Assembly (NCBI RefSeq): GCF_050920415.1
Contig: NZ_CP169309.1
Direction: 5' to 3' (one strand)
DNA: 64,000 nucleotides
From: Escherichia coli
GTDB taxonomy: Bacteria > Pseudomonadota > Gammaproteobacteria > Enterobacterales > Enterobacteriaceae
Positions 37,880-38,904 of the stretch are shown here, one piece after another; position 1 is the stretch's first letter; every line of letters begins with the position of its first letter. A program made the position numbers and the translations under genes. The notes beneath the pieces were generated by a model. It was not told the DNA's origin. It did not search any database and saw only the letters and a program-made list of their open reading frames with translations.

Positions 37880-38517
37880 TCTTCTGAATCACCGGGCGAC
37901 AAAATATAACTGAGTTACAAATAAGTACCAGTCGAATGAGTATTATATTAAGAATTTTTGAGTATCGCTGATACCACCAGAAAGCAATGCTAGCGCAATA
38001 TTATAGGGCCAGCAATTGAGATTATTAGCAAAAGCATGTTAAGAATTAATCACCGAATTTATATATTAATTATAGTAAGGCAATGAGCTATTTTTGATAG
38101 TAAAAATAAAACAAGTTTATTTGATATATTAAATGAAAAAATTAATCTTGATGGCAGTCTGATTATTGGTGAAGTTTATAGGTCATTTTTTTTCGCCAGC
38201 GGTTAAAGGAATAGAATCGTCGTATAAAAAAAGGGTGTTTTGGGGCGTGTAAAACAACATCTTCACCTTAATGGCGATACAGTTGGCTGAGAGTCAGCAG
38301 GGGGGCAAATCACCTGCAAATAAACACGGCGCATGCTGGCGCGAATATCGCGGATGCGTTCGAGGACAGAAGAACCGACAGACGGATTCTTCAGTCGCTC
38401 ATCGTCCATCACAAAACCTTTGATCAGGTATTCCTGAAGCCGATTAAATATTGAGCAGTAGAAAATATCTGGATTGACTGTATTACAAGGGATTGGAAAA
38501 CGTCAGTAGAGGCAAAT

Positions 38518-38612
38518 TGGCGGAAGATCACAGGAGTCGAACCTGCCCGGGACCGCTGGCGGCCCCAACTGGATTTGAAGTCCAGCCGCCTCACCGGAGA
38601 CGACGATCTTCC
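38518..38612 (-). tRNA. selC: tRNA-Sec (selenocysteine, UCA anticodon), 95 nt with long extra arm
   Basis: Reverse complement matches remembered E. coli selC sequence GGAAGATCGTCGTCTCCGGTGAGGCGGCTGGACTTCAAATCCAGTTGGGGCCGCCAGCGGTCCCGGGCAGGTTCGACTCCTGTGATCTTCCGCCA. Confidence 0.93.
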
Positions 38613-38904
38613 GCGCCTCGATTGCTACATGGAGGCGGGGCGCATTATAGCTACTTCCTTGAGTTTCTACATCCCCCAGATCAGTTTTTTCCGCCTAATA
38701 CATTCAGCGTATTATCACGAAAACATTATAGTTCATATAAAACCCATACTTTACAATGATATATGAGCGTAATTTACGCTACCACGATCACATAAAACAA
38801 GAATCATAAATTAATAACCAGATATCGGAATATTCGCTCTCACAGGGATGGTTTACAAAATGCGTTATCGGTCTCAGCACCCCTATAGCATCAAGGAAAA
38901 GCAG

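Follow-up and report, generated by a model that had tools for sequence, protein, structure and literature searches.

An unoccupied K-12-type selC site and a separate eip (selC-B) island in an Escherichia coli chromosome

The attachment site at the 3' end of selC is used by LEE, P4-like satellites, SHI-2, PAI I536 and SPI-3. In the stretch of DNA analysed here (64,000 nucleotides of Escherichia coli contig NZ_CP169309.1, hereafter the window), this site is intact and none of these elements is present, while an island with T3SS-related genes lies a few genes away. This arrangement raises the question of whether selC is empty in the ordinary sense, and by which route the neighboring island was acquired. 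A preliminary description of the locus regarded the selC site as empty and ascribed the island to a different and probably older acquisition mechanism. Based on the results presented below, it is very probable that the window contains an ordinary K-12-type selC locus without insertion and, separately, the already published eip island, which carries no integrase. The observation on selC and the island is correct but ordinary, as all of the features involved have been annotated or published previously, and its importance beyond correct annotation is little.

The selC gene and its attachment site

The following features were assigned to selC and its immediate surroundings.

38503-38541, no strand assigned: attachment-site core, comprising the last 24 nt of selC and 15 nt downstream (from break points in occupied genomes)
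38518-38612, minus strand: selC, tRNA-Sec (anticodon UCA), intact (ARAGORN, Rfam, comparison with K-12)
38613-38904, no strand assigned: selC-yicJ intergenic region with putative divergent promoters (from reading of the sequence)

The tRNA-Sec gene, for which ARAGORN reported the anticodon as TCA, is the sole tRNA gene of the 64-kb window. It matches the Rfam tRNA-Sec model (RF01852) with 83.8 bits, the gathering score being 47, over model positions 1-91 of 91, and is identical to its K-12 counterpart at 95 out of 95 positions. Thus, the ARAGORN prediction, the full-length Rfam match and the comparison with K-12 all agree with the preliminary description of a complete 95-nt gene whose 3' end lies at 38518 on the minus strand. 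Upstream of selC, a TATAAT hexamer found at 38644-38649 on the minus strand may have a promoter role. The start of yicJ is at 38905 according to the PGAP annotation of the near-identical strain MFDS1022581, while 38847 is the base preceding the ATG of the longest ORF. In the interval 37880-38847, only short and unremarkable ORFs were detected, promoter and terminator scans around the selC interval remained at or below chance, and a permissive Rfam scan of 34000-40000 returned tRNA-Sec only.

The extent of the attachment site was deduced from genomes in which it is occupied. The BLAST break points of such genomes map to 38503 (selC side) and to 38541-38547 (setC side), indicating that the duplicated core consists of the last 24-30 nt of selC and a 15-nt flank. 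This agrees with the 24-bp direct repeat of selC reported in the literature (PMC6174562). In the window, the last 29 nt of selC match only once in 64 kb, even with up to 3 mismatches tolerated. When the whole window was scanned for degenerate copies of the att region, using 16- to 24-mers, the matches did not exceed chance level (29893, 55341 and 55845) and were all far from selC, and tblastn searches of the 64 kb for remnants of O157-type and P4-like selC integrases yielded a best E-value of 0.35.

The gene order and orientation of the locus are the same as in K-12 MG1655 (yicJ, b3657; selC, b3658; yicT, b4653; setC, b3659). Alignment of 37880-38847 with K-12 revealed 935 identical positions out of 968 (96.6%), the 33 differences being 31 substitutions and two 1-bp indels. 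The selC attB of the window is therefore single-copy, unoccupied and of the K-12 type. The alignments with K-12 and with occupied genomes, as well as the search for att repeats, had been proposed in the preliminary description as a check on emptiness; they showed colinearity, one att core and no integrase, and neither the repeats nor the integrase remnants that would have spoken against it were found, while other E. coli genomes carry LEE or a P4-like satellite at the same position. P4-like satellites and CP4-like islands integrate by means of tyrosine integrases that use the 3' end of selC as attB. None of these elements has inserted here; the site is intact and presumably still usable for such integrases and, if so, stays available for later acquisition of islands.

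Occupied selC loci and the possibility of past excision

For comparison, in strain CUVET19-1396, which carries the same T3SS island as the window, selC is occupied by a P4-like satellite of 11 kb, with a tyrosine integrase beside selC and genes for SIR2, Psu, Ogr/Delta, Icd-like and primase-helicase proteins; on the setC side, the 3' end of selC is repeated in degenerate form. In O157:H7, an integrase comes next to selC, then a CP4-like module and finally LEE. In O157-type genomes, the selC 3' 16-mer was observed a second time without mismatch (positions 9715-9730 of L009 and 935-950 of L004), where it separates the CP4-like integrase module from LEE or from IS elements, which suggests, on the strength of the repeat positions, two elements in tandem at the selC of these genomes.

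Layouts of selC were surveyed in 5,424 complete E. coli genomes. The contiguous K-12-type layout is present in 2,473 of them, and a second layout with a full-length rhuM gene, described below, in 844. About 39% of the genomes have neither of these integrase-free layouts, and the examples examined among them carry integrase-borne insertions.

Such numbers point to frequent turnover at the site, and together with the 11-kb satellite found at selC in closely related island-positive strains, they bring up another reading of the window, namely that a recent ancestor harbored an integrase-borne island or a P4-like satellite which was excised precisely, restoring attB, so that the emptiness would be secondary. 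The 15-bp att flank of the window, which carries 3 substitutions relative to K-12, might be taken as a trace of such an event, and a precise excision would yield the very sequence observed. On the other hand, an excision of this kind is scarless and leaves nothing positive in its favor, and the variant flank (GCCAATTT...) is common to the window and the setC-side flank of CUVET19-1396, so that it looks like a polymorphism of the lineage. Past excision is thus considered improbable, and the site is better regarded as an ordinary one without insertion.

The selC-setC spacer contains a fragment of a RhuM-family gene

The region between selC and the island consists of the following features.

38441-38502, no strand assigned: 62-bp spacer of K-12-type loci only, with no counterpart in strain N64
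38278-38439, minus strand: RhuM-family pseudogene fragment (yicT, b4653 in K-12; PGAP, tblastn, Pfam)
37880-38240, no strand assigned: AT-rich stretch preceding setC (GC 0.305), presumed to be its promoter and leader
36695-37879, minus strand: setC, MFS sugar efflux transporter (PGAP, Pfam MFS_1)
35661-36584, minus strand: backbone gene yicL (PGAP of near-identical strain; also in K-12)
34839-35657, plus strand: backbone gene nlpA (PGAP of near-identical strain; also in K-12)
34337-34630, minus strand: backbone gene yicS (PGAP of near-identical strain; also in K-12)

The three backbone genes yicS, nlpA and yicL lie between the island and setC. The spacer between the 3' end of selC and setC is 638 bp long (37880-38517), with a GC content of 0.375 compared to 0.496 for the window, which places it at the 10.6th percentile of 638-bp windows. 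The AT-rich spacer of about 640 bp noted previously was therefore recovered, and its AT-richness is moderate. The 361 bp proximal to setC have a GC content of 0.305 and are colinear with K-12 at 96.4% identity; no ORF of note and no Rfam match were found in this part.

According to the preliminary description, the spacer was devoid of integrase and phage-like genes. This held true for integrases, but a gene of island type does occur in the spacer, namely a RhuM-family pseudogene fragment. PGAP marks this fragment in both MFDS1022581 and K-12, and the curated MG1655 record lists it as the pseudogene yicT. With the RhuM protein of strain N64 as a query, the tblastn E-value was 5e-21 in a search of the spacer only and 1e-18 when the whole window was searched, with the match spanning 38221-38439. 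The fragment corresponds approximately to residues 121-170 of the 345-aa N64 protein, the N- and C-terminal parts being absent, and matches Pfam PF13310 with 48.4 bits (gathering cutoff, 33.7) over profile positions 52-98 of 252. It contains an internal gap of 8 codons and represents neither a complete ORF nor a functional member of the family. For K-12 yicT, PGAP notes an internal stop, whereas the fragment of the window has none.

In strain N64, which has the second integrase-free layout, an intact rhuM begins 52 bp beyond selC, with the orientation of selC, and is followed by a gene for a 165-aa hypothetical protein and then by yicL; this selC locus has neither setC nor an integrase. Homology between the window and N64 stops at 36613, just upstream of yicL, and restarts at 38503, the att boundary, and the rhuM fragment is all that the two share in between. 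Compared to N64, the rhuM of the window is cut down to about 160 bp, and setC fills the remaining segment. Thus, the 1.9-kb segment 36614-38502, including setC, is variable, and is represented by rhuM and the hypothetical gene in the 844 other E. coli genomes of this layout. The 62 bp between the fragment and the att boundary (38441-38502) are 93.5% identical to K-12 and have no counterpart in the loci with full-length rhuM.

Orthologues of RhuM with 88-94% amino-acid identity are encoded in Citrobacter, Klebsiella aerogenes and Enterobacter cloacae, where the gene is found near yicJ-yicI, at a distance of 0.1-1.1 kb from selC on its downstream side and oriented like selC. In these loci of Citrobacter, K. 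aerogenes and E. cloacae, no integrase was detected between selC and rhuM. An identity of 88-94% is a typical level for vertically inherited genes. In two Salmonella contigs, rhuM ends a CP4-like island, and no selC is present within 4 kb. A literature search on the relationship between rhuM, selC and setC returned nothing specific.

The selC loci of these genera also hold other genes. A SymE-like toxin gene accompanies rhuM at selC, without integrase, in K. aerogenes, E. cloacae and Citrobacter; the toxin gene precedes rhuM in K. aerogenes and E. cloacae (selC-SymE-rhuM) and follows it in Citrobacter (selC-rhuM-SymE). A DUF6680 gene is also found with rhuM near selC in K. aerogenes and Citrobacter.

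The presence of the rhuM fragment in the spacer indicates that the reference "empty" site is itself a decayed state. The locus is ordered yicI-yicJ, selC, the RhuM pseudogene fragment (yicT), setC and yicL. The fragment is what decay has left of a rhuM gene, which other E. coli lineages as well as other enterobacterial genera keep as a conserved neighbor on the downstream side of selC. Emptiness of selC holds relative to integrase-borne islands only, the 1.9 kb from the att core to yicL being variable and low in GC, with a rhuM remnant in its selC-proximal part. We see roughly even chances that selC with an intact rhuM directly behind it represents the ancestral enterobacterial state, that the K-12 type was derived from it by deletion of most of rhuM and replacement involving setC, and that the selC-yicL interval is an old hotspot of replacement independent of integrases.

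The same segment might also be read as a fossil. In this alternative, 36614-38502, with the RhuM fragment and setC, would be an old selC island whose integrase and distal repeat have disappeared, and the site would be occupied in all K-12-type strains. The segment starts exactly at the att boundary (38503), other content replaces it in the 844 genomes, its GC content is below average (0.456 for setC and 0.375 for the spacer), the gene family of the fragment takes its name from a gene of the Salmonella SPI-3 island, and rhuM stands at the end of a CP4-like island in the two Salmonella contigs. Salmonella SPI-3 fills the same selC-yicL interval. However, neither an integrase remnant nor a distal att copy has survived, and the selC-adjacent rhuM orthologues, conserved at the above level across genera with no integrase in between, fit an old resident gene equally well. 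A fossil island is therefore regarded as possible but rather doubtful, and an ordinary K-12-type locus with a decayed rhuM remains the preferred reading. Screens for selC occupancy based on K-12 primers use as their baseline a probably derived state, in which the reference site counted as unoccupied has a RhuM pseudogene and 1.9 kb of replaceable sequence.

The eip island between nepI and yicS

The island and its left flank comprise the following features.

15938-17122, plus strand: nepI, left flank of the island (alignment with K-12)
~17120-34338, no strand assigned: eip ("selC-B") island, 17.2 kb (alignment with the K-12 nepI-yicS junction)
17325-26042, plus strand: iatC/eaeX, inverse autotransporter adhesin, 2,905 aa (PGAP; Pfam IAT_beta/Big_1)
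27053-28750, minus strand: eilA, HilA-like regulator (PGAP; Pfam Trans_reg_C and TPR)
28953-30302, minus strand: eipD-like, IpaD/SipD-type tip protein (PGAP, Pfam)
30346-31497, minus strand: eipC-like, otherwise unassigned 383-aa protein at the EipC position (PGAP, Pfam)
31510-33291, minus strand: eipB, SipB/YopB-like translocon subunit (PGAP, Pfam)
33346-33528, minus strand: 60-aa ORF
33538-34035, minus strand: eicA, SycD/LcrH-type chaperone (PGAP; Pfam TPR_3)

The Pfam matches in the island (IAT_beta/Big_1, Trans_reg_C and TPR, T3SS_TC, T3SSipB, and TPR_3) and the PGAP names of the near-identical strain show that the eip/selC-B gene set eaeX(iatC)-eilA-eipD-eipC-eipB-eicA is complete in the window. 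Two differences from MFDS1022581 were noticed: IatC has 2,905 aa here and 3,225 aa in MFDS1022581, due to the copy number of Ig repeats, and eicA is interrupted by IS2 in MFDS1022581 while being intact in the window. In the iatC-eilA intergenic stretch (26043-27052), identity to CUVET19-1396 is only 85.4%, compared to 93-98% in the adjoining genes, and a 341-aa ORF with a TTG start (25976-27001, plus strand) overlaps this stretch.

The selC-A and selC-B loci of enteroaggregative strain EAEC 042 reportedly go back to Sheikh et al. 2006 and Ren et al. 2004. In EAEC 042, selC-A is phage-like and is bounded by selC on one side and by a 21-bp repeat of the 3' end of this gene on the other; the backbone genes setC, yicL and nlpA separate selC-A from selC-B (PMC7058095). 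The selC-A locus is largely absent from ST69 bloodstream isolates carrying selC-B (Fox et al. 2020, PMC7058095), and the eip/selC-B locus has also been described in PMC2808357. The island of the window has the same genes as selC-B of EAEC 042 and ST69, in the same place beyond setC, yicL and nlpA, and selC-A is absent from the window, as it is from most ST69 isolates. Judged by gene content and position, the island is the published eip/selC-B locus, and the layout of the window has been described before.

Out of 5,426 complete genomes, 745 contain the eip part, which in 430 cases is combined with an uninterrupted K-12-type selC. Thus, the layout that the preliminary description presented as a feature of this strain is indeed present, but it is not peculiar to the strain, being both common to 430 complete genomes and published. 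The strain carries the eip translocator, EilA and adhesin island with no LEE, SHI-2-type or P4-like element at selC, while K-12 lacks the eip island altogether.

The island was previously placed about 4 kb from selC, between nepI and yicS, and this position was reproduced: nepI ends at 17122, yicS occupies 34337-34630, and the right border of the island is 4.18 kb from the 3' end of selC. The two flanking genes are convergent, and the borders coincide with their stop codons. The island replaces the 40-bp nepI-yicS spacer of K-12 together with the last codons of nepI, which ends in ...VKMK* in the window and in ...VKMKKS* in K-12. Survival of the 40-bp K-12 spacer at the ends of the island was also considered, and was rejected because the local alignments scored no better than shuffled sequence.

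In composition, the island resembles a tRNA-associated integrative island, the GC content being 0.35-0.41 for the T3SS genes and 0.57 (locally 0.64) for iatC as compared to about 0.50 for the backbone. The other hallmarks of such islands, that is, tRNA insertion, mobility genes and direct repeats, were not found. The island content is limited to the adhesin, regulator, translocators and chaperone, with no mobility gene and no homology to the two selC integrases used as queries; no tRNA gene adjoins the island, selC being the only one in the window; and the two border regions have no 9-mer in common, either direct or inverted. The claim of an acquisition mechanism different from that of selC islands is consistent with these findings, which are negative ones, while the junctions themselves display no mechanism.

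The literature names the eip island a selC locus, and the distance to selC is only 4.2 kb. This invites the idea that a larger element delivered the island via selC, and that a rearrangement or an insertion of setC-yicL-nlpA-yicS later parted the two. Such a history is highly unlikely: yicS, nlpA and yicL are backbone genes whose order is the same in strains without the island, K-12 among them, and the borders of the island abut nepI and yicS precisely, without any sequence derived from selC. Most probably, the eip genes, which form an insertion lacking an integrase between nepI and yicS, entered once in ancient times by a route other than selC, and were subsequently either inherited or moved among lineages by homologous recombination of the flanks.

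Host lineage and age of the island

The genes recG-trmH-spoT-rpoZ-gmk-ligB (47562-56000) show 95.4-96.1% identity to 5,417 other E. coli genomes that represent all of the major groups. Identity above 99% in the core genes of the window was found in only two genomes; MFDS1022581 is 100% identical. From these identities, the source looks like a deeply diverging, cryptic-clade-like Escherichia lineage.

The island of CUVET19-1396 occupies the same site, and its junctions are 98% identical to those of the window. Between the two strains, island genes are 93-98% and flanking genes 95-99% identical, so that the divergence of both is similar. Relative to the commonest alleles of the collection, the island allele of the window is 92.5-94% identical, with 96.3-96.4% identity to that of ST648 and similar genomes, and island alleles at 90-95% identity are present in 535 E. 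coli genomes. Lineages that are 4-5% apart in their core genes have the island at one and the same site, and its junctions are conserved among them. The conserved site and junctions, together with the matching divergence of island and flanks, fit a single old insertion with subsequent inheritance and loss.

The acquisition had been described as probably older. This is plausible in view of the conserved site and of the divergence of the island and its flanks, but falls short of proof, as recombination may also have contributed. The selC region is 97.6% identical to K-12 and hence less diverged than the core genes of the lineage (~95.5%), and identity to mainstream E. coli is 96-98% for this region and for parts of the island as compared to 95.5% for the core. 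Based on this comparison, the lower divergence of the selC region and the island may reflect homologous recombination instead of vertical descent.

A scan for EilA in GTDB species-representative genomes, one per species and limited to close relatives, returned two E. coli-like contigs and none from other Escherichia. The two contigs, whose EilA is 97% identical to the query, are filed under metagenome-assembled genomes of Collinsella sp. and Clostridium sp. and are almost certainly mis-binned E. coli.

Other features of the window

Two further regions of the window were recorded. A type II toxin-antitoxin pair, consisting of a RelE/ParE-family toxin and an HTH antitoxin, occupies positions 15044-15710 of the minus strand, in the gap from yicN to nepI. 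K-12 and N64 lack this pair, which is 99.1% identical in the island-positive strain CUVET19-1396. In addition, two hypothetical genes (~160 and 479 aa), annotated in MFDS1022581, are found at ~3792-5990, between ilvN and uhpA.
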